Below are positions 1-43,405 of a stretch of 53,686 nt of DNA, piece by piece. Within the stretch, counting starts at the first letter, position 1, and every line of letters starts with the position of its first letter. The stretch covers positions 1-53,686 of IMG/VR virus record IMGVR_UViG_3300014491_000004; one strand, given 5' to 3'. The notes under the pieces are model-generated. The model worked only from the letters and a program-made list of their open reading frames with translations. It made no database searches and was not told the origin of the DNA. The DNA is from a virus (Duplodnaviria; Caudoviricetes). The translations under genes were made by a program, and so were the position numbers.

Positions 1-28
1 AGATTGCCAATATTTTCTTCTTCTTCAT
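1..28 (-). CDS. 5' end of a gene running off the left edge (MKKKKILAI...)
   Basis: On the minus strand CAGGAGG (SD) precedes an ATG at 28, and a GTATACT -10-like box lies at about 71-77. Confidence 0.5.
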
Positions 29-136
29 TGGGGCCTCCTGAGTGCGGCTAGTCTTATCGTCCATGTTCCAGTATACATTCAAAATACCGAAAAAGGATAT
101 TTAGCCAAACCGTCCAATTTTAGTATATACTAGACC

Positions 137-6593: not shown

Positions 6594-7709
6594 TTATTCG
6601 CTCAAATATTTAAGATGCTGAAAAGCGTCTGCCGCTGCTGCTAGGGGAGGATTTCCCGTAGCGGGGTCAGTTGCAATACACGCGTCTGTATAAACATAAC
6701 CACTAGTTAAAGTATAAGTAGTTCCTAAACCAATAGTTGCTCCTGCCCCCAATACTCCAATTTCAATTGTATGAACAGCAGAATCCACTTTCTTAGCATA
6801 ACTTCTAGCTAATACCATATTAGGATTTACTGTTAATCCAGCATTTCCCATGCCGTAAGAGTCATAGATCCCCACGGTAGCACCACTTACATAATCTACT
6901 GTTTGTGCAGGAACTTTATTTGTACAATTATAGTTTGGAGTTGTACCGTTCGCAGTCCATTGACTGTATACGCCAGTCCCTGAAGCAATCTTAGTCAGTT
7001 TACGAGCATCTTTTTGTGTGGGGGCATTTTGTGTGGTTCCTGTGTTATCCCATATTCGCACATAATCACAGTATTCGGCTAAACCTACGATATTAGACCA
7101 ACTGCCGCTGGCATAGCCTAACTGCACTTGATTGGCTGAGCTATGGGAAGAATAATAAGATTGAGTGCATAGCCCTGTAGTTAAGGGAATTACTTGCACG
7201 CCATCTAGCCAGCATTGAACGGTTCCTACAGTTGGACTAATAGTAACTTCAATTTCGATACCATGGTTTGGTACTGAGCTGGTAGAAATCAATCCGTTGG
7301 CACTTGCTGGACCAACTGGTGTAAATACAGGATATTCTGAGTGACCATAATACCCAAATTGTAGTCCCCCTGCTGGGTTTACAGCAAGTGACATTTGTCC
7401 GGTGCCGCTGTCTAACAATGAAATAACGGTAGCATAAGTGCCTAACGGCAATACACCACAACCATAGGTACGAAATACAATTAGCGTGCCTTGAGATGAT
7501 TTGAGATTCTTTCGAAGATAGGCATTAGTATCAAGATGTACGCCCTGATTTGGAAAACTACCAATAGCAGCATTTCTTGCGTATGCACTAGAAACTATAG
7601 GCGTGCTACCGTTGCCAATTCCAACATTTTCGTAATAAATCCCAGCTTGTAATTGAGTTGTATTATAGTAATCGAATGTGTCCGCCGCTTGGTATCCCAT
7701 ATTATCCAC
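6594..7709 (-). CDS. Tail fibre/receptor-binding-associated beta-sandwich (lectin/LamG-like) protein
   Basis: G/T/S/N/Y-rich beta-strand composition, with IEIEVT...GTVQCWLDG...DYVRIWD resembling a ConA-like fold. It overlaps the fibre gene. Confidence 0.55.
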   Translation of the reverse strand: MDNMGYQAADTFDYYNTTQLQAGIYYENVGIGNGSTPIVSSAYARNAAIGSFPNQGVHLDTNAYLRKNLKSSQGTLIVFRTYGCGVLPLGTYATVISLLDSGTGQMSLAVNPAGGLQFGYYGHSEYPVFTPVGPASANGLISTSSVPNHGIEIEVTISPTVGTVQCWLDGVQVIPLTTGLCTQSYYSSHSSANQVQLGYASGSWSNIVGLAEYCDYVRIWDNTGTTQNAPTQKDARKLTKIASGTGVYSQWTANGTTPNYNCTNKVPAQTVDYVSGATVGIYDSYGMGNAGLTVNPNMVLARSYAKKVDSAVHTIEIGVLGAGATIGLGTTYTLTSGYVYTDACIATDPATGNPPLAAAADAFQHLKYLSE

Positions 7710-8991
7710 TCACCGTCATATTAATTGTAAGATTTAAACGCATTACACTGCTAGCACTTATAACATTAAATTGTACCTCGTCATATTGATTTAATGTTAT
7801 GCTAGTCCATCCACTTAAAGATAAACTTTGATTTTTTTGTACCCCACTTAAATTTGGACCGTTCCCTGACCCCACAATACTAACTGTAGTAGAAAAATTG
7901 GCGTATGTGCTTCGAAGAACATCTATTACAGCTGAGCCAGGTTGATCTGCGGTTAAAGTCCAACCGGTTATAGTTCCCCCGATAGGCATATTAATTTGAC
8001 CCTTTAACCCCGTACCTACAATCGAACCCCCGCCATCAATTACATACTGAATCGCCGTAGTGCGGGTTGTTGTACTTGGAGTTACCCATTTAACGGTTGG
8101 TCCTGCTGGGGAACCGCTTGTTTCACTGGTGAGAATCTGACCCACAGTACCAGCGGAACCCGTACTATCATATATCGCTTTCGATAAATGTAAACTTCCC
8201 GTGGAGTCAATTCGAATACTCGGAACATATCCGAAACCTCCTTGAGCGTTTGCATTGACATTCCATTGTTGAATGTCGTTGCCTTGAGCGTCCCCCCAAA
8301 CAGTAATCATACCAAATGGGTATGTAGTATAAGATCCTGATGTAGCACTGGTAATATACAACATAGCGGGCTGCGGTCCACTACCTCCACTTACTCTACC
8401 CAAAAAGGCTGTGCCCCCAGGATTACCATAGTACAAATAACTAGGGCGAATATATACTAGACCACCGGAATCTTCCATGCTTAAGGCAATTTCTCCATCT
8501 CCCTGTTGAACAACAAGTGTACCCTCTCCGCCGTTTCCGCAACTTAACTTAAAAATATCATCTCCATCACTATCACCGGTCACATTCAGAGCAGCGTCTA
8601 CAAGCCCTGTTCCCTGACTAATGATAGTTGTGTTACCAAAAGTATCTACGGAAAAAGCCGCAGGAGATACACCGTTGGAATACAAGTTAATGATACCGCT
8701 ACCATGGGCATCACCAGTAACACTTAAAGCTACGCCTGTACCTGTAGGTGCAATGGCGATTAATCCGTTAACAAAATCAGCCGCGGTGCCTGGAATACCA
8801 AAAAAAACACCAGCTTTGTTTCCTTGAATAGTATTATTGCTGCCCCCAGGCGTAGAGGAAGATAAATTGGCGATACTTTGGGCAGTTACAGAATAGGCAA
8901 CTCCCGGTGCCGATGGACGGGCAATAGGCAAAATATCTGCACCTTGTGCAGGAACTCCCGATGTAAGTTGACTAATTTTCTCGTCAGACAT
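7702..8991 (-). CDS. Tail fibre protein
   Basis: N-terminal KISQLT..P..GADILPI, Gly-rich GDxxGxDI repeats, and a C-terminal IDGGGS..TG.KG domain typical of phage fibres. Confidence 0.7.
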   Translation of the reverse strand: MSDEKISQLTSGVPAQGADILPIARPSAPGVAYSVTAQSIANLSSSTPGGSNNTIQGNKAGVFFGIPGTAADFVNGLIAIAPTGTGVALSVTGDAHGSGIINLYSNGVSPAAFSVDTFGNTTIISQGTGLVDAALNVTGDSDGDDIFKLSCGNGGEGTLVVQQGDGEIALSMEDSGGLVYIRPSYLYYGNPGGTAFLGRVSGGSGPQPAMLYITSATSGSYTTYPFGMITVWGDAQGNDIQQWNVNANAQGGFGYVPSIRIDSTGSLHLSKAIYDSTGSAGTVGQILTSETSGSPAGPTVKWVTPSTTTRTTAIQYVIDGGGSIVGTGLKGQINMPIGGTITGWTLTADQPGSAVIDVLRSTYANFSTTVSIVGSGNGPNLSGVQKNQSLSLSGWTSITLNQYDEVQFNVISASSVMRLNLTINMTVSG

Positions 8992-8993
8992 AA

Positions 8994-9728
8994 TTACTCC
9001 AGTAAAATAAACCCACTTCCGTCTTCCAAAATGAAACGGAAAGTCCCATTTTCTTGTAACAGATAGTTATTTGCACTTAGAATTGTCACAGTTGCTGTGA
9101 CTTGTAACTCTATAGCGGGACTTCCCACTAAAATCGGACTACCGTTGGCGTTGTACCCAGTCATGGTAAGAATTATGGTTTGGGGAGTCAAAGGAGGAGA
9201 AGCTGATAGATTCATGGGTATAATTCCCGAACCAATGGTAACCAATAATCCGCTATCAAATCCATCGGTTCCTGTAATCCGTATTTGTGCTACATCAATA
9301 GTGCTCCACAATAAAGTGATTGAGTTGGGAGTGATAACATTATTTGAATCCGAAACTGTAGTGGGTATGGCGCTCAGAGCAATTTGGGGAATGGGAGTGT
9401 CAGCGATTGTAGAATACCCAGCAATGATCGCGAAGCCTCGAAGTGAAATAGAATTGGCGTCTTCAAAAGGGGGGTTGACCATGTGATGAATAACTTGCAC
9501 TACTACTTGAGGTTGCACAAATGCTTGACTCATGTAAATCAAATAACGATTATTTGTACCATCAAATGATGAAGTTTGCACTGAAGTAAGTACACCGTTG
9601 ATGAAGATTTGCAAATCCCTAGCTGGATCAAATGATCCTAAAGGTCCGCTTTGTGTAAACGGTCCTGTATAAGGAGCCAACTCTAATTGAATACGATTTG
9701 GATACGGAGCATTAATTTGTGCTAACAT
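8994..9728 (-). CDS. Virion structural (fibre-attachment/Ig-like) protein
   Basis: Beta-rich, with a C-terminal LLQENG..ILEDGSGFILLE motif of the kind commonly found just before fibre genes. Confidence 0.55.
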   Translation of the reverse strand: MLAQINAPYPNRIQLELAPYTGPFTQSGPLGSFDPARDLQIFINGVLTSVQTSSFDGTNNRYLIYMSQAFVQPQVVVQVIHHMVNPPFEDANSISLRGFAIIAGYSTIADTPIPQIALSAIPTTVSDSNNVITPNSITLLWSTIDVAQIRITGTDGFDSGLLVTIGSGIIPMNLSASPPLTPQTIILTMTGYNANGSPILVGSPAIELQVTATVTILSANNYLLQENGTFRFILEDGSGFILLE

Positions 9729-12700
9729 TTAAACCTCTTCAAACAACTCTCTTTGTACCGGGGGAAACGCATCCCGCAATAGTTGGGCGTACTCTATTTC
9801 TCCCAAATAAGAGTCATCCCACTTAAGCTTTGGATCCTTCCAATTATCATCATCCCAATGAATTACGTAATGGATTACTCCTCTGGTATCCCTATATACT
9901 TTCACAACTGTACCTTTATAAATCTTTTCCCTATTCCATTCATCTGGTTGATATACAATACGCTCTCCCTGCACCCATTTTCGCTTAGTTGCTGCTTCTT
10001 TAAATAGTTCACTTTGTTGCGGTGTAATTTTATCCATTATCTCCTTATCTGCCTCTTCCGCTATATCGCTACTACCGTTCATCCACTCTTTAGGATTACG
10101 CCAACGAATTACGTAATGTCTTTCCCCGGTATTTTTATCTCTGTAACGACCTATAACTACGCCATTCCAAACGTTTGGATCAAAAATTCCTTTATACCGG
10201 ACATGTTCCCCTATCCTCCATTTCCACCCCGATGCATCTTTGAATATATTTATTTGGGCTAAGTCTAAACTATGTTCCGGTGTCTTAGTTTTATACTTAT
10301 CCCCATGATATTTGATTTTACCATTTCCCCAGTCTAACCAGCCGTCCCACTCAATTATATAAATCTTTTCCCCAGGGTAAAAAAATCCTTCTTGGCGCAT
10401 TTGAGTATATTTTTTTTGTACCCTACCCAAATCCCCGTAATGTGTATGTATTACCCTATCCCCAATTGCATACTTAAATCCAGCGGATGATTTCTCAAAG
10501 GGCAGTTCTTCCTGCGTTGATCTTAACCATTTTTCTAGAATAGCGAATGATGTAGAATTTACCAACTTACCGTCAAAATCCATCCTACGAGTGTCCCATG
10601 TAATGTTATAGTAATTACTCTCCTTGCCCCGCAGTCTAAAGGTTACTGTACCCCTTCTGTTAAGCCCTTGAACTACATCTTGAACTTCATCCCCCACTTG
10701 AAATTTGTAAGCTCGGGCACTGGTTTTTTCTTCGTCAAACATCTGCATCTGCTGAGGGTGAGGGCGTAAGTCCCCTTCCGATACTTTATTACGCTTTGAA
10801 GCCTGGTGAGGATTTTCATCAAACAAATCTAATTGCATGGGGCGCAAACTTTTTTCCATTGCACGCTGTTCTACTGGTTTTTCCATACCCAAACGACCTA
10901 GTTTGGCATCCCAAAGGACTATATATTGATATCCGCGTTGAAAGATAAGTTTTTTTATAGTTCCAAAAAATAAAATATGTGGTAATAAATGGTTATACCA
11001 GCGAACTCTATCCCCCACTTTAAACTTATGACGCCTGGAGGCTTGTACCCTACCCGATTCTTCGTCAAACAAGTCTAACTGCACGGAGCGTAAATTTACT
11101 TCCTTTGCTGGCAAACTAAAAGGTTTGGTACAGGAATCATCGTTTGGTATCGCGTCCCACAAAACTTCGTATTCATACCTACCTTTGTGATTGCGTTTTG
11201 TTATAGTTCCTATACATATGCTACCTAGCATATGTCTAACTCTATCCCCTACTCTGAATTTGAACTTAGCGGTAGCGGTTTTAAACAAACTCTGCTGAGC
11301 TGGCATCAAAGTACGATCTAATTCCCAAGCCGTATAATAATGTTCAAGAGCACCTGTGACTACATTTGTCCAGTACCATCGCACTCTGTACCAAATATCC
11401 CTAGCATCAATATCAAGCTCTTCTACTTCCCCAGATAGCAATTGATCATCTGAAAAGTATTTTATGACCTTGTCTCCTTTACGGAATCTATGTTTTGTGG
11501 AGCCTTCCTTGAATAATTCTTGCTGAGCCGGATTTAGTCTATCTTCAACAATCCAACCTTCATAAAATTCTGGTTCTGTCCAGGTTACAAGGCATAGTAC
11601 CTGTGCTTCCCCGGAACCCCACCTTTTTCCCCATCGAATTTCTTTTATCTCACCTGGTATAACACATTGTTTAGAAAATTTACTAATAGCAAGTAGGGGA
11701 TATTTTCTTACAACATAATCCCCTACTCGAAATTTCCATTTCGTAGAACTTTCCTTGAACAGATCTTGCTGCAACGGTTTTATCTCGTTTTCCCGCCAAG
11801 CGTTGGTTCCTCCCCTTCTATCATCATAAGGATCTCGCCATTTGACTACATATAGCAAGGAGGAAACCTCTTTTGACCATCTGCAACTTAATATTTCCCC
11901 TATAGCATCAACATTTGAACTCCAGCTGTTTGAGCCCCTAGATAATAGCCAGTCAGGTACATTAACTATAACTTTATCCCCCTTTTTAAATTTTTGTCTT
12001 GTGGATGAGAGTCGCTGACCTTTCCATCCCTTACCTTTCATCTCATCTGGATCTTCATCCACATCATAAGGAAGTCCTTTGTGGAGATGAGGCTTACCCT
12101 CTTCATGTAGCTGTTCTATCTTCGTTTCTTCTTGTTGTGTTAAGTCTTGAATCGCTTCCACTTCTTCATCTTCGGGGGACATCTTTTCATAGTGCTCCGG
12201 TAGGCGCATCCAAGCAGGTGTAGTTTCTTCCTCTTCTTCCAAAGATACAGGCTCTGTGGCCGGTTGATCCCGCTGAATTTCGTCTTCTTGATGCTCGTTT
12301 CCTTTTTCTTCTAGCTCCTTTTCATGGAGTAATCTAGTTTCTTCTTCATCTTGCAGCTTCTGAAGCAGACGATCCTTGACCTTTTTATCTTTAGTATCGT
12401 GAATCTTTTCTAGTTCTCTCTTTTCCTTCATCTCCTTCTGCTTCTCTTGGAGTTCTTGAGGAATTTTTTCTACCCTATCTTTCTTGTTACGGATTTCACG
12501 CTCACGCAAAATCTTTACAATATTATGCTGCACCGAGGGCAGGATCCTCTCGAACACACAATGAATATGTTTGCAGATTACATAGTTGCCCCTCAAATCC
12601 AGACGCTCTTTTGGAGCTTGAAGCAAGGGGCGAGTTGGAGGGAGTAATCCATCTCGCTGATGAAGGTTCCATTGCGCTCCCCACATTAAAAATGCTGGAC

Positions 12701-13604
12701 AGCTGCAATTGCATTTAACATCTAAGTCATTTGCCCGTTGACTATCTGCTATTTTTGTAACATCAAACTGCACTCTAACATCGTGACCCGCAGGATCGCT
12801 ATCTTCCTTGTTACACTTGACATTGTAATGGAGAGATAAAGTCTTGGGGTTAGAATCAATTAAAGTAGGAGTACAACCAGGACGATATTTTTTTGAGAAT
12901 TGGTTTGTCTGTCTTACTATATCAGGAAGAGATATGGCTGTTTTCATCATATCTTGACTAGCCCTGGGGTTAAACAAGTTACGCTGTTGTGCAAGTGGGA
13001 TTAACACCGAGGAATATGATATATTGTTCTCATTCAATTTATCCCATTTAACTTCTACTACAAGCTCGGGCCGATTTTTTACTTTTCTTAAAATTCCTGT
13101 TATAGTACCTTCTTGAGCATAGTCGTAAACCCAACACACTCTTGTACCCACGGCAAAAGTCTCCCGCAAAGCTCTTTCCTCTTTACCTATAGCGGCTGAT
13201 TTATCAAATAATTCTCCTTGAGGTTCTACAGGAACTAGGTAATTGGGCGAATACCAGTCGAGACCAAACTTTTTTTCCGTCCAGGCAGAATAGTCCCAAA
13301 TAACCCCAACTTCCATTGTTTTATCTCTATTATTATATTGAAGCTCCTTTACCGTACCCAGAAAATCATATGTTTTCCCAGAAGTATCATTAATATGAAT
13401 AAACCTCTTTACTTTAGTACCGGGAGCAAATTTTTGACGAAAAGCTCTTTCCTCTTTACCCATAGCTGCGGTTTTTGGATCCTCGAATATTTCCCCCGTA
13501 GCAAATTTATCCCTTAACTCAGCTTGCTTTTCTCGGTGCTCTATGTGGCGTAGGGCAGCGGTGAGCGGGATTGTGATGTATTTGGAAGCATCGACCATGG
13601 ACAA
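9729..13604 (-). CDS. Modular polyprotein B (1291 aa): SWIM-type Zn-finger core flanked by 11 SH3/KOW-like modules (plus one truncated), each ending in a QxxLF-type motif
   Basis: Core CNCSCPAF...CKH. Repeats follow F[KR]VGD[RK]V..G.[IV]...Y.V.W...L.P.QxxLF and most are followed by K-x-A/S. Confidence 0.8.
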   Translation of the reverse strand: MSMVDASKYITIPLTAALRHIEHREKQAELRDKFATGEIFEDPKTAAMGKEERAFRQKFAPGTKVKRFIHINDTSGKTYDFLGTVKELQYNNRDKTMEVGVIWDYSAWTEKKFGLDWYSPNYLVPVEPQGELFDKSAAIGKEERALRETFAVGTRVCWVYDYAQEGTITGILRKVKNRPELVVEVKWDKLNENNISYSSVLIPLAQQRNLFNPRASQDMMKTAISLPDIVRQTNQFSKKYRPGCTPTLIDSNPKTLSLHYNVKCNKEDSDPAGHDVRVQFDVTKIADSQRANDLDVKCNCSCPAFLMWGAQWNLHQRDGLLPPTRPLLQAPKERLDLRGNYVICKHIHCVFERILPSVQHNIVKILREREIRNKKDRVEKIPQELQEKQKEMKEKRELEKIHDTKDKKVKDRLLQKLQDEEETRLLHEKELEEKGNEHQEDEIQRDQPATEPVSLEEEEETTPAWMRLPEHYEKMSPEDEEVEAIQDLTQQEETKIEQLHEEGKPHLHKGLPYDVDEDPDEMKGKGWKGQRLSSTRQKFKKGDKVIVNVPDWLLSRGSNSWSSNVDAIGEILSCRWSKEVSSLLYVVKWRDPYDDRRGGTNAWRENEIKPLQQDLFKESSTKWKFRVGDYVVRKYPLLAISKFSKQCVIPGEIKEIRWGKRWGSGEAQVLCLVTWTEPEFYEGWIVEDRLNPAQQELFKEGSTKHRFRKGDKVIKYFSDDQLLSGEVEELDIDARDIWYRVRWYWTNVVTGALEHYYTAWELDRTLMPAQQSLFKTATAKFKFRVGDRVRHMLGSICIGTITKRNHKGRYEYEVLWDAIPNDDSCTKPFSLPAKEVNLRSVQLDLFDEESGRVQASRRHKFKVGDRVRWYNHLLPHILFFGTIKKLIFQRGYQYIVLWDAKLGRLGMEKPVEQRAMEKSLRPMQLDLFDENPHQASKRNKVSEGDLRPHPQQMQMFDEEKTSARAYKFQVGDEVQDVVQGLNRRGTVTFRLRGKESNYYNITWDTRRMDFDGKLVNSTSFAILEKWLRSTQEELPFEKSSAGFKYAIGDRVIHTHYGDLGRVQKKYTQMRQEGFFYPGEKIYIIEWDGWLDWGNGKIKYHGDKYKTKTPEHSLDLAQINIFKDASGWKWRIGEHVRYKGIFDPNVWNGVVIGRYRDKNTGERHYVIRWRNPKEWMNGSSDIAEEADKEIMDKITPQQSELFKEAATKRKWVQGERIVYQPDEWNREKIYKGTVVKVYRDTRGVIHYVIHWDDDNWKDPKLKWDDSYLGEIEYAQLLRDAFPPVQRELFEEV

Positions 13605-13649: not shown

Positions 13650-13979
13650 TTACCAAGCAAATGGGCTAGAATTGCCTTCACCGAAAAATGTGATGCGGAT
13701 TTTTCCCATATCTCCGGAGCAAAATCCTAAAATCATCAGGTTCCGGATAATTCTCATTTTGGCATATTTCCTGAATTCGCTTAAAGTCAGATTGGCTTTG
13801 AGGTTGTTGCAATAGCCACACGCGGGAACAAGATTTTCATCGGTATTTTTACCACCGCGGCTGCGGGGCTTGGCGTGATCAATGGTAAGTTCTTCTGGTT
13901 TGGCACCACAGTACCAACACCTACCTTGACATTTTTTTGATGCTCTTACCCATTGATTTTTTCGGGGGGATCGAATCAT
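13650..13979 (-). CDS. Small HNH endonuclease
   Basis: CWYCG...TIDHAKPRSRGG....NLVPACGYCN..K is a canonical HNH with Zn ligands. Confidence 0.9.
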   Translation of the reverse strand: MIRSPRKNQWVRASKKCQGRCWYCGAKPEELTIDHAKPRSRGGKNTDENLVPACGYCNNLKANLTLSEFRKYAKMRIIRNLMILGFCSGDMGKIRITFFGEGNSSPFAW

Positions 13980-13989
13980 TGAAGACTGT

Positions 13990-14454
13990 TCATATAGTTT
14001 TGTCTAAGCCCATTCTACGCCTAAATTCCGGATCATCGGTAGAACTTTCCTTGGGAACAGCTTTTCCTCGTTTGACAGATGGGGTAAATTCTTCTTCAGC
14101 AAAGCCTTGTTTCTTGACGGGGGGACTGCCTTGGGGACTGCCTTGGGGACTGCCTTGGGGACTGCCTTGGGGACTGCCTTGGAGTTTAGCGATAGGCTCT
14201 GATGATGTTTTAGGGGCTTTAGGGACGACTTTAGGTGCAGATGGGGCTTGGACTACTTCTTGAATAAATTCGCTCTTTACAAGGGCTGCTAAGCCCAATT
14301 GAGTCTGTTTTACAGCTTTTATAATCTCCCCATTTCGATATACAGTAAGCCGGTTAGCGTTTCCAATATCATGAACCAGAATATCTCCTACTTTAACGAA
14401 AAATCCAAAATCGGCAAAGTGGATTGGGGACTTAACTAGATAATTTTTTTGCAT
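13990..14454 (-). CDS. Hypothetical late protein with GSPQ repeats
   Basis: 154-aa ORF with a GAGGGAG SD, downstream of the capsid region. Confidence 0.65.
   Translation of the reverse strand: MQKNYLVKSPIHFADFGFFVKVGDILVHDIGNANRLTVYRNGEIIKAVKQTQLGLAALVKSEFIQEVVQAPSAPKVVPKAPKTSSEPIAKLQGSPQGSPQGSPQGSPQGSPPVKKQGFAEEEFTPSVKRGKAVPKESSTDDPEFRRRMGLDKTI
14121..14182. repeat. 12-bp tandem repeat (ggggactgcctt) x5 encoding QGSP
   Basis: Read directly from the sequence. Confidence 0.95.
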
Positions 14455-14469
14455 GCAATCTCCCTCTAC

Positions 14470-16212
14470 TTAAATACTGGGAATTGGCCAGTTTTGAAAG
14501 TTGAAGGAATACCTCCTCTTACCACTATCCCAAATCCTGTACCAGCCTTTGGCTTCCGCAGCAGATTTTTCATTAATTCCGGCTTTCACTCTCATGGCAT
14601 ATTTGGATACACGCCTACTTCCGTTCGTGTATGAAAAGTTGGGTTTTATTTCTTCTTCAAAATCAAACCCCAACTTTTCATATAGATTTCCCGTATGAAA
14701 TCTATTATCAGAAAATGTAATAATACGTTTGAATCCCATAGCTTTTAATTTTGGGATAGATAAGTTAAGAGCTTTCTCATGCGGGTTCCAAGCTTTATAT
14801 TGATGATCCCAGCAAGCTCTGTGCCATAACACAGTACCTTCTTCCCGCTTCATGAAGACCCAAACACCCACTATCTGCCCTTTATATTTGGCGGTAACTG
14901 TTAAGCATCCAGAGGCAGCCCCAAGATAATGATATTGATCAAGAAAAGCACGAGCATCGGATGGGATTTTATCAAATATCTCATAAGTAGGTTTAATTCT
15001 TTTTTTACGGGTAGGAGATAAAATTTCCTGTATTTGAGCTTTGATGATACTTTGTTTAGTTTCCCATTCATCTGAATATATTTGAATCAAACGATCCTTA
15101 CGGGATTTAGCTAATAGGTATTTCTCCCAGTCATTTTTATTGGGGTTCTTATACTTTTCACTATGCCAAATAAGACCATGATATTCAATAGCTAACTTTT
15201 TTGCTGGGACATATACATCATATGACCTGCGACTATTGAGTAATGGGTAACAAGCAGGTAAGGTATCAGGAGATAATAAAGTTACAAAGTTTCTTACCTC
15301 TGATTCTTTTGAAAACTCACTTTGTCCTATTTGCTGGCACCCACATGAACGAGTACTACCATCATTTACATCGGCTAATCTTGCTGATATTTTATTACCA
15401 CAAGCACAAATAAATTGAAGTTTTTTGTTAGACATAGGAGGATATTCTCCTTTTTGTCCTTGTATTAAAGAAAGATTACCCCATTTGAGGGTTCCCCAGT
15501 AACCTGTAGAAAAATAATTACACTCCCCGCAGGATTGTTGATATCCTTGTGTGACATGACCAAATTGTATTTTTTTAACTTTCCCACACATACACAAAAA
15601 TGAAAATTTTTTTGATGAAAAAGGATGTAGCGTTTCTGGAAAATTAAAATCATGTAGTTTTAATTTACCCCAGCGTTTCCTATACCAGTATTTTTTGTTT
15701 TTTTGGTTACATCTACCACAACTCTTAGTATCCCCTTTTGTTACATTTTGAAAAATTGCCATATGTGTATTGCCGCAATCACATAAAAATTTAAATTTTT
15801 TATTGGAGCTAGCCCCCCACTCAGTAGGCAAATTCTCCTCTTGTATCAACTTTAACTTACCAAATTTTTGATTGATCCATGTGCTTTGAGATTGATAAGT
15901 ACATTTCCCACAGCTTTTAGTGTTTCCACTACTTACCGCTTGAAATTTCATGTATATCGATCGAGAACAAGTGCATACAAAACAAAATTTGTTGTGAGAA
16001 TTTTTAGGCAATTCAACAGGTAAGTTTTGCCTGGTATCAAGTTTCAAATGACCAAAGGATTGGTCTAACCAGTAATTTATAGGTTTGTAAGAGCATTTTC
16101 CGCAGGTTTTAGTTTTAGCTAAATTTCCATAAAGTATGTTGGATTTCCTGCCGCATTGGCATAGCACGGCTATTTTTGTACGAGACAACGGAAATTTTTG
16201 AGTAACTAGCAT
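14470..16212 (-). CDS. Homing endonuclease-like protein: repeated CxCG...SCGxC Zn modules, PD-(D/E)xK (Hef/Vsr-like) nuclease and a C-terminal GNAT/Mom-like domain
   Basis: About five CxCG...KSCGKC-type repeats, YDVYVP..KLAIEYHGLIWH, then FLDQYHYLG...TFSDNRF..GNLYEKLGF...RIWDSG. Confidence 0.75.
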   Translation of the reverse strand: MLVTQKFPLSRTKIAVLCQCGRKSNILYGNLAKTKTCGKCSYKPINYWLDQSFGHLKLDTRQNLPVELPKNSHNKFCFVCTCSRSIYMKFQAVSSGNTKSCGKCTYQSQSTWINQKFGKLKLIQEENLPTEWGASSNKKFKFLCDCGNTHMAIFQNVTKGDTKSCGRCNQKNKKYWYRKRWGKLKLHDFNFPETLHPFSSKKFSFLCMCGKVKKIQFGHVTQGYQQSCGECNYFSTGYWGTLKWGNLSLIQGQKGEYPPMSNKKLQFICACGNKISARLADVNDGSTRSCGCQQIGQSEFSKESEVRNFVTLLSPDTLPACYPLLNSRRSYDVYVPAKKLAIEYHGLIWHSEKYKNPNKNDWEKYLLAKSRKDRLIQIYSDEWETKQSIIKAQIQEILSPTRKKRIKPTYEIFDKIPSDARAFLDQYHYLGAASGCLTVTAKYKGQIVGVWVFMKREEGTVLWHRACWDHQYKAWNPHEKALNLSIPKLKAMGFKRIITFSDNRFHTGNLYEKLGFDFEEEIKPNFSYTNGSRRVSKYAMRVKAGINEKSAAEAKGWYRIWDSGKRRYSFNFQNWPIPSI

Positions 16213-16323: not shown

Positions 16324-17529
16324 TTAGTTCTCTCCAGTGTTAACAGTAAGTCTTTGAACCTGTATTTCTGATGTTTTCTTGGTGTGGAATGCTTTCAGAC
16401 TTTCGGAGCGCTTGAGTCTCGTCGCTTCCGATTGCGTTTTTCCCTCAAGGGATTTTGATATCTTGTCGCGGGTGGCGGCGTCCCGTTCCTTGCCAAAGAA
16501 CACATGGTTCTCGCCACGGGGACGGGCGGCGTCAAGCGCGGCTACGCCTTCCGGGTTGCTGGCATAAAATTCCTTGTGCGATTCTGACATATTATCTTTG
16601 GTTTCTTTGGTATGGGACTTGCCAAGCATAGTCAGACCGTTGGTAGGTACAATGCCCTTCATTGATTCGGAACGAGCTTGACGAGATTCGTCGGACCATT
16701 GCCAGTGTTTGCCTTTGGCGATTGAGATTCCCTGACCGACAGGGTGGGTAGATGGCTGCGGTCGTCCTTTTAGGGTCTTGCTGATCTTCGCTGCAACTTC
16801 AGGTGGACAGCCTAAGATACGACGGTGATGCTGGTCGCCCCTGGGCATGTAGGAATAGGCATCGTCTTTGGTTTGTTCTTTTTCATGCCGCTCAGTGATG
16901 GCTTTACTGATAGCCGTTTTGGTTTCGTCGGTTTGTAAGTTCTTACCAAGAACGTATCCGCTCTGTAGATAAACCGCCATCTCGCTAAGTAGGATACGGT
17001 GCTGTTCCACGCCACGCATCACCCATACACGCTTAGGGACACCCGTCGTCCAGCCGAGGGCGACGTATGATTCGACTTGGTCTGGCGGGCACACCGAACA
17101 TTCTTTCTCGGTGCGGTAGATTCTGACCCAGCCTTTGATAGTTGACTCCACGCCTTGGGCGCGGGCTTCCTCGTAAGCTTTGGCTACATCCTTAACCAGC
17201 GCCTCGTCGAAATTCTGTTCCACGAGTTCCACGTAGCGCAAGCCAACCATGAGAATGAACGCGGCACGCGCAGCGGAGACACCCGGAAGAGCCCTGTAGA
17301 GGTAGTAGTGCGCCAGCAGATGGTCGGCGGGTCGGAGGTCAATCCTGTTCCATGAGTGGGTTTGGAAAGATTTGTAGTCCGGAAACACAGCTTGCGGCAG
17401 GATATGGTGCCTGTCGAACAGCCCTGTTGGTTGTGGGGTCTCTTCCAAGAAGCTGATGTAGCGATCCAGCCAAAACGGGTTGTGATCTAGTTTCGCCAGA
17501 ATAGTTTTGATATCCATATCGCCCTCCAA
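16324..17529 (-). CDS. Free-standing HNH homing endonuclease with NUMOD3-like repeats, whose C-terminus duplicates the capsid C-terminus
   Basis: RHHILP...N...L...DHLLAH, GKSHTKETKDNMSESH and RGENHVFFGK. It ends VQRLTVNTGEN and is visibly GC-richer than its flanks. Confidence 0.85.
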   Translation of the reverse strand: MEGDMDIKTILAKLDHNPFWLDRYISFLEETPQPTGLFDRHHILPQAVFPDYKSFQTHSWNRIDLRPADHLLAHYYLYRALPGVSAARAAFILMVGLRYVELVEQNFDEALVKDVAKAYEEARAQGVESTIKGWVRIYRTEKECSVCPPDQVESYVALGWTTGVPKRVWVMRGVEQHRILLSEMAVYLQSGYVLGKNLQTDETKTAISKAITERHEKEQTKDDAYSYMPRGDQHHRRILGCPPEVAAKISKTLKGRPQPSTHPVGQGISIAKGKHWQWSDESRQARSESMKGIVPTNGLTMLGKSHTKETKDNMSESHKEFYASNPEGVAALDAARPRGENHVFFGKERDAATRDKISKSLEGKTQSEATRLKRSESLKAFHTKKTSEIQVQRLTVNTGEN

Positions 17530-17662: not shown

Positions 17663-18622
17663 TTAGTTCTCGCCTGTGTTGGCGGTTGCAACGAAGCGAC
17701 CGTTAACAGTAAGTCTCTGGACTCCGCTCGGATTAAAAATGAGGAAGCCAAGATTCTCAAAAATAGAGAACCCGATTTGACGTAAGTCAGGTCTATCTGC
17801 ACTCATGACCGTTAGCGGAATTCTTTCGGGAATGACTCCGAGGAATTCAGCATCGGCCAAAATGTAAATGCAGCCATAACCTACTTTACGAGATTGGAGA
17901 AGAGTTGCACCCCACAAATATCCCATGACCCCAGTCTTTAAAAGCTTACGCTGAGTTTCACGGTCGATGTTTTGTTGAGTCCACTTCAACAAATCCGTAT
18001 AATCACGCGGATTGAAGAAGCAGAAAGCTACAGACAAATCATGACGCTGCACTTGACCAAAGCCGTCTGCCATTGAGTTGAGGTCAATAGGAGCGTTGAT
18101 CTGAATGTCCGGGTTATAAACCGGGTCGTTAGCAGCATGCGTTGCCGCAGCGTTAGCGACTGCATCGAAGAGCGAAAAAACGTACGAGTCTTCTTGCGCA
18201 CCAACTTCAGCTTTCGCCAAGTTGAGTGAACGAGCGACGAGATCGAATCTGCGTTCCTTGATTTGGGTAATAGGAATCATTGGGTTCGACACAATTTCAA
18301 ATGTGGGAACCGTGACACGCTTTGGTTTAGTAACGCGGACAATATCTCCGCCTTCTTCACCCACAACGAATGCTTCAACAAAGGACGAACCAGGTGTTGA
18401 ACCAACCGTCATAGCTGCGGTGTCAAATTCTTTATCGTAGATCGGCAGTGCGCCGTCCGGTAGAGTTTCGACCATCAATGCTTTACGAGCGATGGACATA
18501 TAATCTCTACGACGACGAAGGGAAGGTCCCAACGACGCCGCTAGTTTTTGTCTGCCACCGGCTGTCTTGAGCAGTTGCCCAAGCATTGCGGTCTGTTGCT
18601 GAGTACGTGAAAGGTTTGCCAT
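17663..18622 (-). CDS. Major capsid protein (HK97-like fold)
   Basis: 319 aa, located after protease, scaffold and decoration genes. Strong AGGAGAGG SD and its own terminator. Motifs LPDGALPIYDK, VPTFEI.SNP.I....IK.RRF and IGFSIFE.LG..I.NP.GV. Confidence 0.85.
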   Translation of the reverse strand: MANLSRTQQQTAMLGQLLKTAGGRQKLAASLGPSLRRRRDYMSIARKALMVETLPDGALPIYDKEFDTAAMTVGSTPGSSFVEAFVVGEEGGDIVRVTKPKRVTVPTFEIVSNPMIPITQIKERRFDLVARSLNLAKAEVGAQEDSYVFSLFDAVANAAATHAANDPVYNPDIQINAPIDLNSMADGFGQVQRHDLSVAFCFFNPRDYTDLLKWTQQNIDRETQRKLLKTGVMGYLWGATLLQSRKVGYGCIYILADAEFLGVIPERIPLTVMSADRPDLRQIGFSIFENLGFLIFNPSGVQRLTVNGRFVATANTGEN

Positions 18623-19473: not shown

Positions 19474-19636
19474 ATTTTTTAGTTTCTCCGTGTAGCTTAA
19501 GAATTGTTTTAAAACCAATCTAGTCCTTTTGGAAAGGAGTAAGACTATAGAATTAAAACGGCTACATTCATGCGATTAATAATTGGTTTTCAAACTAACT
19601 ATCTTTTTTATCATTTTGTTAGTATTTATAGTAATA

Positions 19637-22917: not shown

Positions 22918-23832
22918 CTAGCGCCGTAACCCCCCTTTGATGTCATTTTCAAGCAAAAATTCACAGATGTCCGACCGGTCAGAAGCTGCTTTTGCAAACG
23001 CAGCTGTCTTAGCCGCAGTCTGTGTATATGGGGTTTTTGGTCCTTCCCACGATTCAGCGACTATATTTCGTTTCACCGCGCCAGGAAAAGCTGGAGTTGC
23101 TACCCAACTGGCTTCTACAAATTTTACTCCGCCATTAGGCATCGTTTTATGCCCGCAAAGTTCCGCTATTCTACGAGGGATCCCGTTATCGTCGGCCAGA
23201 AAGGTCCCTTTTTGATATTGTAAATGGGAACAGTAGGTACTAGCATCAGTTACATGCGCACCGCAGTAAGAACAAATAACTAAGTCTGTAACACATCCCA
23301 TGGAGAGATAACGCACGTTGCCGTCTCGAATGTCGCTCACCAGCTTCTCGTGAGTGACATCAGTCGCTACGAGGATGTCACAGAAATAAACCCAGATGCC
23401 GCCCGCGATATTGATCTTACGCAAGACTTGACTGAGGATATGCCCTTTTGCATATTTCGAATTCTGGAAATGCTCAACGAAGTTGAACGCGCCTACGAAA
23501 GATGGTGCAGAAAGTTTCAGTACTTCGTTCGTCCACGCGTCATCGTTATTATTCACCAAATGACTTGTCTCGGGCTTGATGAAATAGTCGAATGGTTCTT
23601 CTTCAGTCATCACTGATGCCATGATCGTGCAATGGCTAAGCAAGTAATTTGAGGACTTTGCAATTTTTTGCGCGGACGCGGTTTTGCAGAACGGATGATC
23701 CCCGTCAATGTGGCATCCACGAAATGCTCGGCTGCCGTACATTTTTTCCCAATCACCGGGTTTTAGAACGGGCTCTGTAACAGCCGCATTTGCAAATTTT
23801 TTAAAAGGCATCCTATTTTGTTTTGTCCACAC
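22918..23832 (-). CDS. Prohead (capsid maturation) protease with Zn-ribbon insertion
   Basis: NNNDDAW, NFVEH, LSMGC (Ser nucleophile), CSYCG..C.H and FVEASWVATPAFPGA match an HK97/herpes-type protease pattern. The real start may be MPFKK at 23811. Confidence 0.85.
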   Translation of the reverse strand: MWTKQNRMPFKKFANAAVTEPVLKPGDWEKMYGSRAFRGCHIDGDHPFCKTASAQKIAKSSNYLLSHCTIMASVMTEEEPFDYFIKPETSHLVNNNDDAWTNEVLKLSAPSFVGAFNFVEHFQNSKYAKGHILSQVLRKINIAGGIWVYFCDILVATDVTHEKLVSDIRDGNVRYLSMGCVTDLVICSYCGAHVTDASTYCSHLQYQKGTFLADDNGIPRRIAELCGHKTMPNGGVKFVEASWVATPAFPGAVKRNIVAESWEGPKTPYTQTAAKTAAFAKAASDRSDICEFLLENDIKGGLRR

Positions 23833-26900: not shown

Positions 26901-29900
26901 AAAATACCAGACTTTATTCTGAATAGCGTGATCTTGCAGTCCCAGGAAATGGCTTAAATTGTTTTGCAGGTCCGTCATGCTAGTGATGCTAGTGGGTATA
27001 TCCTCTTTAGTGATTGGATTTTTTCTGCTATACATACCCAAATCATTCTTGAAAATAGCTTTTGCCGCCGCACTCCGCAGGCTACCTCCCGCTAACCTGG
27101 ACTCCAAATGTAGCCGATACCAGCGCAAATACCATACAATACGATCAGCTTTCTTCAGGGTTTGCTTTGCCCAAGAAATTTCTTTTTTAATGATAGATTC
27201 CAATCCTCTGGACTCAGGTAAAGCAAGAACCTGTTGAAACATATCGAAGTAATTAGTAGCCAATACATCCCAGGAAGCCGTAATACTTAACCCCCCAGTC
27301 ATATTCATTTGGTCATTTTCTTCTTCATCCTCATTGGGATTATCAGTTGCCATAAATTCGTTTGGAGTGCCCCCAATGGGAGTACCTATACCGTAAGATT
27401 TAGTGGATGAATTTTTGGATAAAAAATCATCTGCATCTTTATAAGCGTACAAGGCTGAATTAAAAGCCGAATCTAAATGAGCAGCAGCGGAACGCACAGC
27501 CCATACAATGTCCATTTTGACTATTTTTTTGACCGTTTCTAACCAATCCAAACGACCCTGTACAGTCTCAAGAGCTTGTAAAGTTTTATCAAACATTGGG
27601 ACGCCGTTAAACAAGACTAAATTTGAATGAACTATATCGCGTAACATACCGGAATATTTTTTAATATAAGGAATCAATTTTACAGCCAGCTGTTGGGTAT
27701 TTTTTTCCCTTCCCAGCACGTCATCATTCCACAATTTACTGGACTTTACTCTCCAGCGTTTAAACAAAAGAGTAACCTCCAACGCGGTAGAAGTTTTTTG
27801 TGCTTGAGCTGTTTTACTAGTTTTAATTTCTGACACTTTCTCAGCAAACTTAGGAATCTGACCTCCTATTACGCTCTTTATTATTTCCGGGGTCACGGCG
27901 GTAACAGATGTGATTTGGTCGGGCTTGACCCAGCCTGTAGCTTTTAACCACTTACCTTTGGATGAAGCTTGACTCAAAGGATCCGCGGTATCTGTTTTCC
28001 ACTTCTCCCCCCCTGTGGTAAAGGCGACGATACTAATCTTACCTGTGCCCATGGATTGATTGAAATCCCAATCCATCTTACCTGCCCAACGCACAGCATC
28101 TGAAGGGTCAGAGAAAGCAAATATCTCCCCATTACCATAACGCTCTTTTGCTTCTTCTTTAACCCAGTTGGATGTTTGTAAGGGTATGATTCCCTTCTCA
28201 TGTATGGACGGAACCTTATCGGTATGGGTTACATGGAATAATTTTTTATTGGCTGCTGCGTTTAATCTTTTTCTTTCAGGAACTATCTCCCCTTCAATTG
28301 TGTTCGGACCCAGTGAAACATCAACATGGCGATTGGGTGATGGTTTCATTGAAGTATCTGTATCCAAGTCGTGGCTTGCCAAATAAGTTTTCAATGTATT
28401 GATGTCTTCCCCGCTATCTATATTTTCTCCCCACTGTCTAATTGTCCAACCGTCATCAAATACAGAAAGCACCATTTCTGGGTGTTTAACATTTCTATAT
28501 AAACTACCGGAAACATGATACCATTGACCTAAAGAACGCATATATTGATGAATGGGGGAGTTTTTCATACTCTGCGGGGATAAAATTTCTTGAGCTTTCT
28601 TTCTGGCTTTGATGCCCATTGAATTCAGGAAATCTTTATCCCGAGTATAAGGAGAATAATCTTTAGAGAAATCGGGCTTAATATCAGTACCTACTCCCGT
28701 ATCACGGAGAAATCCTTTTTCTTCTGGTGCCAAATAATCCTGTTTCTTGATATGCTCATCATCGCTATAATGGATGTATGTACGAGGTTCTCCAATATTG
28801 AAAACCACTCGTTCCAGCTTTTCTTTGGCTTCTTCTAAAGATTTGCATTCACCTACCTGCCTACCGACATTTAAAGCATCAGAAGCGTCATAATCTGTCC
28901 ATTCCCAAGTACCTTTATACTCGTCCAACTCCAAATGTCGATGATCGTATACCCCGCCCCATTCAATAAAGGCTTCGGCTTCTAGTGGACTGGACGCCGT
29001 TTTCTCTTGGGAAAATAATTCTCCTTGGGCATTCAGAGGAATCAAATCCGCGGCCCGGACATAGGATATCCTATTACCACCATCCCATCTAATTCCAATT
29101 ACAGCTGATCTGTTTCTTGGGTTGTATGGTCCTATGGATTCAATTGTACCCTCTGATTTTGATTTGTGATATCGAACTCTACCCCCTACTTTGAAGTTAT
29201 CTCTGATATATTTTTCATCCTTGCCTATCGCTGATGTTTTTTCTGAAGCAAATAATTCTCCTTGGTCATTCAAATGAATTAACTTATCAGAAGTTGGTAC
29301 AGCTACAATCCCTTTATCAGTTTGATAATCCCAAAGAACTGGAACAACTCCATTTTTAAATTTTGAATTATAATACCAATGGTCGCCGTTATCTACTACT
29401 GTTCCCTCATGCTTACCCATATAGGGTTTATAAAATACAACCCTATCCCCAGGTTTAAAACTTAAAAAATGTTTCTCAGCTTTACCCATAGCGGCTGTTT
29501 TATCATCCGAGAATAATTCTCCTTGGTCGTTCAAAGGTATTAAATTACTCATAAATGGGGCGATGCGACGAAGCTTACGCTGGGACTCTTCGTATCCGTT
29601 CCATGTCACTGGGACACGCCATTCCCTGAGCTTTCTATCAAAGTAGCCATTTTCCACCACTATACCTATAAGCGGCAAGCCCCTTATCAACTCATCATAA
29701 CATTTCGCACTTCCGCAGTATTTAACTCTACGCCCCGGATAGAAAGTATCTAACATGTATCTTTCTTGCTTACTTTTGGCCGCGGATTTGGAAGCTATAC
29801 TTCCATCAGCTGTAACAGCTCGTGGGTTTTCTGGGCAGGTACAGTCCTCACATATACAATCTTTTTTGGCTCGATCACAACCATTACACTGCGGTATATC

Positions 29901-31592: not shown

Positions 31593-31739
31593 CCTAATAA
31601 AGAAGCCAAAAGCATGAAAACACAACGATTAAAAAAATAGACATTTTCGGCGTTTCCGGTGTATACTGGGTATGTAAGCAAATCGTCTCCACAGTCGCTT
31701 TAGTCCAGCACGGTTGGGGACGTTAAAAATGAGGACAAT

Positions 31740-43404: not shown

Positions 43405-43405
43405 A

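Follow-up and report, generated by a model that had tools for sequence, protein, structure and literature searches.

The window, that is, the whole stretch of 53,686 nucleotides analysed here (IMG/VR virus record IMGVR_UViG_3300014491_000004), carries a cluster of virion genes in which ORF B is placed between the gene for the major head protein and a group of fibre-like genes (Table 1). The three ORFs directly downstream of B are rich in Gly, Ser and Thr and fibre-like by eye; the first of them starts at the base adjoining the B stop codon, and the ORF at 7702-8991 matches the virion structural protein family phrog_10330 (E 4.9e-15). Directly downstream of ORF C, the same strand encodes a head maturation protease. 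The order of genes (sheath, protease, major head protein, B gene, fibre genes) is shared with the Tunturiibacter phage Tunturi_5, whose major head protein is 71.3% identical to that of the window. Its gp336 (XOB77779.1, annotated 'tail protein') is 48.5% identical to the B core over query residues 10-239, and gp337, annotated 'tail fiber protein', occupies the position after gp336 as the fibre-like ORFs do after B.

Table 1. Positions of ORF B, its parts and neighbouring features in the window.
Feature	Position	Strand	Remarks
ORF B	9729..13604	-	1291 aa, TTG start, from window translation
Modules B1 and B2	12972..13475	-	residues 44-133 (QGELF) and 134-211 (QRNLF)
Conserved core of ORF B	12030..12971	-	residues 212-525
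Modules B3-B7	10821..12011	-	residues 532-928; QQDLF, QQELF, QQSLF, QLDLF, QLDLF
Module B6	11067-11282	-	QLDLF; used for AF2 model
Truncated module B8	10737..10820	-	residues 929-956; QMQMF
Modules B9-B12	9732..10736	-	residues 957-1291; QEELPF, QINIF, QSELF, QRELF
Three modules in ORF C	29013..29783	-	ORF of 2567 aa; residues 615-871, all ending QGELF
Head maturation protease	22918..23832	-	phrog_18299, E 1.3e-12; syntenic with Tunturi_5 gp331
Major head protein	17663..18622	-	319 aa; phrog_2522, E 8.6e-43, aligned over 3-302 of profile
Three ORFs directly downstream of B	6594..9728	-	Gly/Ser/Thr-rich, fibre-like by eye

The ORF B product begins with an N-terminal ITIPL segment, followed by two modules, a SWIM-like and coiled-coil core, and a second array of nine full modules and one truncated module; a protein in public data (P0002, a cluster of 69 member sequences) is 1290 aa long and 99% identical to it. 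An earlier note had described eleven full modules and one internally deleted module in this polyprotein, and translation, regular expression and a module HMM all agree with that count. B1 and B2 form a subtype with an N-terminal K[TS]AA[IM]GKEE helix segment that is common to the modules of ORF C, where the three QGELF modules reported before were found again by both the expression and the HMM. The truncated B8 consists of an N-terminal K..V.EGD stretch and LRPHPQQMQMF, without a barrel.

Each module ends in a short peptide, and the expression Q..[LIMV]P?F, run on the ORF B translation, recovered all twelve of those listed earlier in identical form, at residues 129, 207, 612, 694, 770, 842, 924, 952, 1031, 1117, 1197 and 1284. 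Motif ends are spaced by 72-87 aa within the arrays, the single interval of 28 aa being that of the truncated module, and the final QRELF is followed by EEV and the stop codon. The 11 pentamers of ORF B compare with 0.33 expected (shuffle mean) and with a maximum of 3 in 5000 shuffles; ORF C has 3 against 0.52 expected, with 3 or more in 1.7% of 2000 shuffles. The QQNLF previously assigned to the same set in polyprotein A does exist, but as a single pentamer against 0.36 expected it is compatible with chance, since 31% of shuffles yield at least one. As background, six-frame ORFs totalling 391,053 aa contain 0.27 motifs per 1000 aa, and the 332-kb relative G001 has 31 motifs in 108,035 aa (0.29 per 1000 aa), 6 of them in its ORF B ortholog. 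No motif was present in the other virion-cluster proteins of the window, and only one chance-level QLEIF was present in the G001 homolog of ORF C, which has other recurring peptides instead. Several other recurring short peptides were also observed in virion proteins of the window phage.

Across the family, position 4 of the pentamer is L in 38, M in 13 and I in 5 of 56 cases, and position 2 is R in 15, Q in 13, K in 6 and L in 5. The residue after F is small in 44 of 67 instances (A 24, S 12, G 8), and some members carry an extra residue between L and F (QEELPF, QRRLQF, QESLGF, QAELKF). The K-x-A/S said usually to come at once after the motif does so at offset 0 in 4 of 12 B motifs; with an offset of up to three residues allowed, the count is 7 of 12 in B and 3 of 3 in C. 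In all eight proteins that were read to their end (B, P0003, P0004, P0005, P0006, P0008, P0016 and the L014 ORF), the motif lies 0-25 residues from the C-terminus, with 0-13 residues after it in seven of the eight; in P0006, the F of the motif is the last residue.

In a 14-module alignment, G, G, W, Q and F are invariant and V and L nearly so, while the modules are only 20-47% identical to the first one. The term hypervariable, which had been applied to them, is appropriate as far as old divergence between paralogs is concerned, and nothing beyond that was found; the array contains no tandem repeats at the DNA level, only short remnants at the KFxVGD codons. The module is covered by no Pfam or PHROG family: none of the 14 modules scored above any Pfam gathering cut-off (best MSL3_chromo-like, E 0.0055; Chromo, E 0.093), and ORF B as a whole scored no higher than 13 bits where 28 were required. 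The AF2 model of B6 has five strands (14-17, 24-32, 36-42, 55-60 and 64-66; pLDDT 82.5), and the predicted structure is an SH3-like, five-stranded, strongly bent antiparallel barrel of about 60-70 residues. VIA-align placed this model closest to PWWP 6kco (Z 8.5, rmsd 1.9, 56 aligned), HspQ 5ycq (Z 8.4, rmsd 2.4, 60 aligned), R67 DHFR (Z 8.2, rmsd 2.4, 58 aligned) and NusG-KOW (Z 8.0, rmsd 1.9, 54 aligned), and the original call of an SH3/KOW-like barrel is borne out. The top Foldseek match was again 5ycq (E 2.3e-3). The five-stranded barrel is thus that of the SH3-like small beta-barrels (Tudor, chromo, PWWP, KOW, HspQ/YccV, R67 DHFR, YorP); however, the Z values across PWWP, HspQ, R67 DHFR, KOW, chromo and Tudor range from 8.5 to 7.4, and a Z of 7-8 is typical for a common structural arrangement; a function common to the module and its structural neighbours cannot be inferred.

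The distribution of the modules is narrow. When an HMM of the module alignment was run against 2252 six-frame ORFs from the window and 32 related loci, the matches comprised 11 modules of B, 3 of C and 6 of the orthologous protein from relative L001, with none in the remaining ORFs scanned. The 32 related IMG/VR loci show 54-69% identity, and gp336 and most other orthologs, at about 330-370 aa, are without the barrel modules that ORF B has. Among five related records, the module profile matched one (G001) and gave no match in G002, G003, G005 or Tunturi_5. The carriers are the window, G001, where modules are also found in a multidomain ORF of 1735 aa, and some metagenome proteins (P0003-P0006, P0008, P0017, L014); P0016 holds a remnant similar to B8, with the motif kept and no barrel. 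Judged by sequence comparison, the modules are lineage-specific additions to a conserved core, and the match to only one of five related records indicates that they are dispensable, as decoration domains typically are. The profile also retrieved 417 proteins at E<=0.001, among them generic tandem SH3-like repeat proteins that share the F-[KR]-V-G-D-R-V start and tandem arrangement of the B modules (P0015, with the Mind bomb SH3 repeat PF18346; P0023, P0027); however, such arrays (P0019, P0022, P0026, P0028, P0043 and others) are without the Q-x-x-L-F tail, and most of these proteins are apparently not phage virion proteins. Standalone small proteins consisting of a module plus motif were absent among the 150 profile matches listed, in which the short proteins are fragments of B-like proteins.

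Tandem small domains are common on phage structural proteins, where spacing, weak adhesion and packing are their usual roles. Our preferred, though still tentative, interpretation is that QxxLF serves as a structural cap and as a linker in a decoration module that occurs in repeats. ORF B would belong to a jumbo myovirus, a relative of Tunturi_5, and encode a virion-cluster protein that is presumably located in the virion and whose core, in one sublineage, may have acquired strings of paralogous SH3/Tudor-like barrel repeats at both ends. In each repeat unit, Q-x-x-[L/M/I]-F would close the conserved sequence, forming a short turn or helix that follows strand five directly; its Leu and Phe probably pack back onto the barrel, and a hinge of small residues (A/S/G, here K-x-A/S) comes next. 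The array could then act as a beads-on-a-string extension with variable surfaces, perhaps serving in spacing, weak adhesion or packing, and the resemblance of the motif to clamp-binding peptides would be a product of convergence or coincidence.

Several observations argue for the cap and linker. The motif is coupled to the barrel, as it starts 3-5 residues past the final hydrophobic position of the strands; nine of the 12 B modules read L-x-P-x-Q there, and the other three L-x-P-x-x-x-Q. In the B6 model, strand 64-66 passes directly into a confident helix, 67-71, which spans QLDL (mean pLDDT 85 over residues 61-70, falling to 61 for the last two residues). Structural neighbours align through model residue 71-72 (PWWP 6kco 7..72, MRG15 chromo 4..72, LBR Tudor 3..72, YorP 1..72), suggesting that a C-terminal element past strand five is normal in this fold class. 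Conservation of Q and F matches that of the barrel-core residues G, G and W, all five being invariant, and outside the modules the motif occurs at background frequency. Furthermore, the final module keeps the motif close to the protein end, which fits a part of the domain and not a mere inter-domain spacer, and the position of ORF B among head and fibre genes, together with the database annotation of gp336, points in the same direction. Against the cap, the generic arrays indicate that the barrel folds without a tail, B8 and the P0016 remnant keep the motif without the barrel, and the E. coli clamp co-fold described below exceeds its controls; the one-residue L-F insertions, which mimic the pentamer/hexamer alternation of clamp motifs, are also odd for a tight cap.

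An alternative, which we regard as unlikely, is that QxxLF is a short docking peptide for another partner, such as a capsid or scaffold surface in the course of assembly, a neighbouring barrel or a host hub other than the clamp. Conservation is focused in the five-residue peptide while the barrel surfaces diverge, truncated modules retain the motif, generic arrays of the same barrel lack it, and the other recurring short peptides in virion proteins suggest a peptide-docking style of assembly. However, this evidence does not separate docking from the structural cap, and a domain element would account equally well or better for the helical model and for how closely the motif adjoins the barrel.

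QL[SD]LF and a hexamer class constitute the bacterial beta-clamp-binding consensus, and the resemblance of the module tail to it is real. All 12 B motifs fit the loose form Q-x-x-[LIM]-(x)F, although only two are an exact QLDLF. As in bacterial clamp-binding motifs, the conserved positions are Q1, L/M4 and F5, hexamer variants occur, and the location is near-C-terminal, down to the terminal F of P0006. We rate it as rather unlikely that the peptide is indeed a beta-sliding-clamp-binding motif and that the array accompanies the DNA into the cell, whole or in cleaved form, and docks host DnaN, as a multivalent sponge or tether that would block host replication and repair or recruit phage factors. 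The presence of modules in ORF C, beside the head protease, and in the 1735-aa G001 ORF would suit such a role, as proteins of this type are proposed to be injected in the available text of PMC5512222. B6 (alignment A1) co-folded with DPO3B_ECOLI gave an ipSAE of 0.46 against 0.02 for the best of 3 controls, with at least 77% of contacts agreeing between runs and a partner pLDDT of at least 73; the E. coli clamp is a stand-in and may not match that of the host. In calibration, 58 of 80 solved complexes and 2 of 110 mismatched pairs pass, but passes at <=0.60 comprise only 7 of the 80 solved complexes plus both passing mismatches, and errors outnumber correct calls among such passes except where the pairing was already probable on other grounds. 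As clamp-peptide complexes have already been solved, the pass may also reflect memorised structures. Co-folding with DnaN, which had been proposed as a check, lends the idea weak support.

Other features speak against clamp docking. Only 5 of the 56 pentamers have L at position 2, which is mostly R, Q or K, and the small residues conserved after F are not a feature of clamp motifs. Unlike those motifs, the B peptide abuts a folded barrel, is modelled as a helix and occurs in 12 copies in a virion-cluster protein. The gene is located among capsid, fibre and tail genes, and the annotation of its ortholog is that of a tail protein; modules are absent from the cultured relative and most others, so that the function cannot be essential for takeover, and small stand-alone carriers of the motif are missing from the profile matches listed. 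More doubtful still is the specific scenario in which a virion protein delivers up to 12 barrel-borne docking peptides that titrate or tether the host clamp at infection, with ORF C and relatives doing likewise among effector-like domains. From the earlier picture of an array of tagged barrels, the barrel fold and the motif likeness are retained, and the chance-level peptide of polyprotein A drops out.

Least likely, in our judgement, is that QxxLF with its small residues is a processing signal directing a phage protease, either the head maturation protease or a different one, to cleave B and C at each module boundary, freeing many barrels of about 9 kDa in the capsid. The protease encoded in the cluster is the candidate enzyme if processing takes place, and the motif stands at every module boundary with A, S or G, or a nearby K-x-A/S, behind it; multi-site head-protein cleavage is established in other giant phages (SPN3US; abstracts of PMC10052503 and PMC7411985), and autoproteolytic domain release is proposed for polyvalent proteins in the available text of PMC5512222. 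However, a motif so near the C-terminus in 8 of 8 proteins leaves little or nothing to release, the L-F insertions shift the register relative to Q, a change not readily accommodated by protease subsites, the motif is missing from the window's other virion-cluster proteins and, apart from QLEIF, from the G001 homolog of ORF C, the major head protein is without a long propeptide, and the available parts of the Tunturi and phage G papers report no cleavage for this phage group.

Polyvalent proteins, according to the available text of PMC5512222, are very large, multidomain and encoded among late or virion genes, with processing and injection proposed. ORFs A and C and the 1735-aa G001 ORF look similar to those described by Iyer et al. 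(2017). Polyvalent proteins fuse several effector or enzymatic domains in a single virion-associated chain; ORF B combines one core with repeats of one module. No Pfam domain passes in ORFs A, B or C, which show no catalytic or known polyvalent-protein domain, and neither 'SH3' nor 'clamp' occurs in the available PMC5512222 text. In the literature searched, no description was found of SH3-like repeats that carry an invariant Q-x-x-Φ-F tail. Should this tail be no more than a fold element, the modules would be a repeat family not described before, useful as a marker of one sublineage among the soil jumbo phages that resemble Tunturi_5. We know of no earlier case of a virion component organised to bind the clamp multivalently; were the tail a clamp-docking peptide, ORF B would be the first, and would offer a direct route to study the takeover of host replication by jumbo phages.

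The core to which the modules are attached, of about 340 aa, contains a KTAISLP box, a putatively metal-binding SWIM-like pattern CxC...CxH, a helical or coiled region of about 100 residues and a PHLHKGLPY box. It is 56-71% identical to its homologs, with many invariant columns, among them the C-x-C ... C-x-H, and its AF2 model is poor (pLDDT 57.9). SWIM (PF04434) had no Pfam match in ORF B at E<=1, and in the Atlas neighbour cluster of the core (score 0.89), SWIM is found on 10% of members. In some relatives, this conserved virion protein hosts inteins.

The modules of ORF B and ORF C constitute a new family of repeats, set apart by a conserved tail of an unusual kind. A public protein of 1290 aa is 99% identical to B, and its cluster comprises 69 member sequences; thus, B is not an assembly oddity. 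The QxxLF-like peptides listed in the earlier note, 12 in B, three QGELF in C and one QQNLF in ORF A, were all recovered by a regular-expression scan. B contains 11 pentamers versus a mean of 0.33 and a maximum of 3 in 5000 shuffles, while C contains 3 versus a shuffle mean of 0.52, with at least three in 1.7% of 2000 shuffles. In an alignment of 14 modules, two glycines, the tryptophan, the glutamine and the phenylalanine are invariant, and identity to the first module is 20-47%. With the HMM built from these modules, 11 were found in B, 3 in C and, at locus L001, 6 in the B ortholog, but none in the other six-frame ORFs (2252 scanned in the window and 32 related loci). Residues 929-956 of B represent a module with an internal deletion that has kept both of its ends. 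At the DNA level, no tandem repeat was detected, only short remnants at conserved codons, indicating that the module copies are old paralogs; recent duplication and a targeted-diversification mechanism were rejected on the same ground.

The module is, according to its model and structural matches, an SH3-like small barrel, as had been guessed from the sequence. The AlphaFold2 model of one module, B6 (14-row alignment; pLDDT 82.5), has five strands, and Q-L-D-L is covered by a helix at residues 67-71 (pLDDT 85 over block 61-70 and 61 for the last two residues). Foldseek returned no match in the PDB at E<=0.001, the best being HspQ (5ycq, E 2.3e-3, TMq 0.66), followed by PWWP, NusG-KOW, R67 DHFR and chromo domains. 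When the B6 model was compared with 48,161 chains by VIA-align, the top matches were PWWP 6kco (Z 8.5, rmsd 1.9, 56 aligned), HspQ 5ycq (Z 8.4, rmsd 2.4, 60 aligned), R67 DHFR (Z 8.2, rmsd 2.4, 58 aligned) and NusG (Z 8.0, rmsd 1.9, 54 aligned); in such comparisons, common arrangements typically score a Z of 7-8. Among viral models, the Foldseek matches were limited to small phage proteins that are uncharacterised, and no match reached E<=0.001. As judged by sequence profiles, the module belongs to no curated family, because none of the 14 modules reached the Pfam cut-off and B had no PHROG match; PHROGs contains no family for C either. Histone-like DNA packing by basic barrels was also considered and rejected, as the net charges of the modules (just -2 to +7) are not distinctive.

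Among known systems, those closest to the module by fold are the Tudor, chromo, PWWP and KOW barrels. In architecture, B comes closest to proteins with tandem SH3-like repeats and to the large phage polyvalent proteins; the polyvalent-protein paper (PMC5512222) uses neither 'SH3' nor 'clamp' in its text. By descent, the closest to B are gp336 of Tunturiibacter phage Tunturi_5 and its uncultured orthologs. No description of such a QxxLF-tailed array was found among the matches listed in a targeted literature search, and the one paper retrieved on QxxLF and bacteriophage was unrelated, dealing with Pol III alpha.

The modules are a sublineage-specific addition to both ends of a conserved virion-cluster protein, since among five related records the module profile matched G001 alone, with no match in G002, G003, G005 or Tunturi_5. 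The conserved part, or core (B residues 212-525), comprises a KTAISLP box, an invariant SWIM-like C-x-C...C-x-H pattern, a long helical region and a PHLHKGLPY box; its AlphaFold2 model was poor (pLDDT 57.9). Proteins matching B at E<=0.001 numbered 13 among 7939 candidates. An alignment-based IMG/VR scan with the core identified 32 loci, on contigs that reach 455,708 bases, unlike a single-sequence search, which identified none, and at most of these loci the protein consists of just the core, at ~320-370 aa. The core alignment (A3) was built from 11 of the 27 core ORFs outside the window, leaving out duplicates, L004, L021, L022, L029 and L032, from which one anchor pattern is absent, and L030 and L031, which carry an intein. 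Searched against PDB sequences, the core matched nothing beyond low-complexity, TPR-like noise (best E 0.026), and an Atlas search gave only viral 'hypothetical' clusters. The core ortholog gp336 is 48.5% identical, is annotated as 'tail protein' in the database and is flanked by the major head protein and a 'tail fiber protein'.

Inteins were observed in several core orthologs (P0007 and P0009-P0014, by Pfam intein/Hint domains; L030:8420-10789 and L031:3936-6305). The insertion point lies precisely between C-S-C and P-A-F-L-Y-W-G, both invariant, within the SWIM-like pattern, which suggests a functionally critical site. In addition, a G-W-x-G-x-R-[LV]-S-S peptide (B residues ~523-538, window ~11990-12040, minus strand; also P0003, P0008, P0017 and L001:1-2763) lies at the junction of the core and the first C-terminal module, is conserved in homologs and occurs again at the C-terminus of the ORF C homolog of G001.

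A cluster of virion genes lies on the minus strand of the window (53,686 bases of an IMG/VR virus record, estimated completeness about 17%). Its major head protein shares 71.3% identity with that of Tunturi_5, described as a 308,711-bp jumbo myovirus with an acidobacterial host (PMC11924767), and 33.5% with its counterpart in Bacillus phage G. The G+C content of the window is about 0.38-0.48, versus the 58.4% reported for Tunturi_5 (PMC11924767).

Positions of the giant ORFs, virion genes and neighbouring ORFs in the window
Feature	Position	Strand	Remark
ORF A	1488-6119	-	one QQNLF
ORF B	9729-13604	-	1291 aa
ORF C	23922-31625	-	three QGELF
Major head protein	17663-18622	-	phrog_2522, E 8.6e-43
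Head maturation protease	22918-23832	-	phrog_18299, E 1.3e-12
Tail sheath	38954-42601	-	phrog_2839; 1215 aa
Acidic ORF	736-1458	-	240 aa
Acidic ORF	36506-38395	-	629 aa
ORF adjoining B	13990-14454	-	154 aa
DUF932-family protein	31740-32864	+	Pfam E 3.5e-07; phrog_1362, E 5.5e-33
HNH-like or zinc-ribbon-repeat ORF	13650-13979		by eye
HNH-like or zinc-ribbon-repeat ORF	14470-16212		by eye
HNH-like or zinc-ribbon-repeat ORF	16324-17529		by eye
HNH-like or zinc-ribbon-repeat ORF	19583-20551		by eye
HNH-like or zinc-ribbon-repeat ORF	34060-35484		by eye
HNH-like or zinc-ribbon-repeat ORF	42613-43467		by eye

Across the family, the regular expression has 67 instances in 12 proteins. Some of these are probably due to chance: three from P0009, which bears an intein, two from A, and one each from P0016 and C. 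In the 56 pentamers, the second residue is R 15 times, Q 13 times, K 6 times and L 5 times, and the fourth is L in 38, M in 13 and I in 5. One extra residue precedes F in 11 instances, at least seven of them at module ends (e.g., QEELPF, QRRLQF, QESLGF, QAELKF), and the residue following F is A in 24, S in 12 and G in 8 of the 67. A K-x-[AS] sequence, previously noted as usually following the motif at once, does so immediately in only 4 of the 12 B motifs, but lies within three residues in 7 of the 12 and in all three of C. The motif starts 3-5 residues past the last strand, with L-x-P-x-Q in 9 of the 12 B modules, and in each of the eight proteins read to the end, the last module carries it 0-25 residues from the C-terminus, P0006 ending at F itself. 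In the complete relative G001, the motif occurs at background frequency (31 in 108,035 aa, six of these in the B ortholog). The single pentamer of A, taken earlier for a copy of the motif, is compatible with chance (shuffle mean 0.36; at least one in 31% of shuffles). A portable motif that also follows non-barrel domains (QQNLF in A, QKEMF in the 1735-aa ORF of G001) was dropped as chance-level, because of that proportion and because 0.27-0.29 motifs per 1000 aa predicts a few in the ~10,000 aa of large ORFs.

A profile search with the modules matched 417 proteins at E<=0.001, and the generic tandem SH3-like arrays among the 150 listed lack the motif. A homolog search with P0016, the sole motif-rich protein without the core, returned only P0016 itself. 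P0125 (721 aa) is a more distant module-bearing protein whose C-terminal region is HNH-like. Two of its modules have G-Q-M-x-[ML]-[AS]-[GA]-W as their last residues and another has QGLLF; thus, the tail varies in its Q-to-aromatic distance.

We tentatively favor the explanation that QxxLF is a structural cap and linker of the repeat unit. Such a role would be consistent with a motif tightly attached to strand 5 and confidently predicted as a helix, with structural neighbours of the barrel that align through the C-terminal element, and with an invariance equal to that of the barrel core residues. Its retention on the last module, a frequency elsewhere that does not exceed background, the location of the gene among capsid and fibre genes and the dispensability of the modules in most relatives would also fit.

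An alternative hypothesis is that QxxLF is a docking peptide, which is doubtful for a partner other than the sliding clamp and unlikely for the clamp itself, the partner proposed in the earlier note. For either partner, docking would account for the motif being missing from generic arrays of the same barrel yet kept in two barrel-less remnants, for the alternation of pentamers and hexamers, and for a co-fold above controls. A consensus motif and pentamer and hexamer classes exist for clamp-binding peptides. No PF00712 match was found in the window and five relatives, and no PF02768 or PF02916 match in G001, G002 and Tunturi_5. With neither a DnaN-like nor a T4-type clamp detected in the window, in G001 and G002, whose completeness is rated at 100%, in three other relatives or in Tunturi_5, the target would be the clamp of the host, or one missed by these models. 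The co-fold proposed earlier was run for module B6 (alignment A1), with the clamp of E. coli as a surrogate, and scored 0.46 against 0.02 for the best of three controls, with at least 77% of contacts agreeing between runs and a partner pLDDT of at least 73. Of 80 solved complexes, 58 attained the pass mark, as did 2 of 110 mismatched pairs, and passes scoring <=0.60 came from just 7 of the 80 solved complexes and both passing mismatches. Unless the guess was a likely one from the start, a pass of this kind is wrong more often than it is right, and it may reflect likeness to solved clamp-peptide complexes already known to the model. To the co-fold model, therefore, the module tail looks like a clamp peptide, which is weak support for a binding that is itself only predicted.

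That QxxLF is a cleavage signal releasing the modules is improbable: a protease gene lies nearby and small residues follow F, but C-terminal motifs leave little or nothing to release, one-residue insertions shift the register, and other virion proteins lack the motif.

Several other features of the cluster were observed. The sheath-family match of the tail sheath ORF is confined to residues 880-1211, the Pfam match to the sheath C-terminal family has E 0.013, and the N-terminal ~880 residues form additional Gly/Thr/Val-rich domains. The ORF adjoining B contains G-S-P-Q in five tandem repeats, and the DUF932-family gene lies within the virion cluster on the opposite strand. The six HNH-like or zinc-ribbon-repeat ORFs within the structural cluster are likely homing endonucleases; at several of their positions Tunturi_5 has no gene. 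By eye, an F-V-T-D-R-D..G.P..P.K..V-P-R.A peptide was found in two copies in the 240-aa ORF and in one copy in the 629-aa ORF, and may be a docking or assembly signal common to these two otherwise unrelated acidic proteins. Similarly, a [FW]-L-x-x-[MF]-G-[VI]-x-G/A-x-K-[KQ]-A-[SAQ] peptide was seen by eye at several sites in ORF A and ORF C, and may be a better marker than QxxLF for domain boundaries or processing sites.
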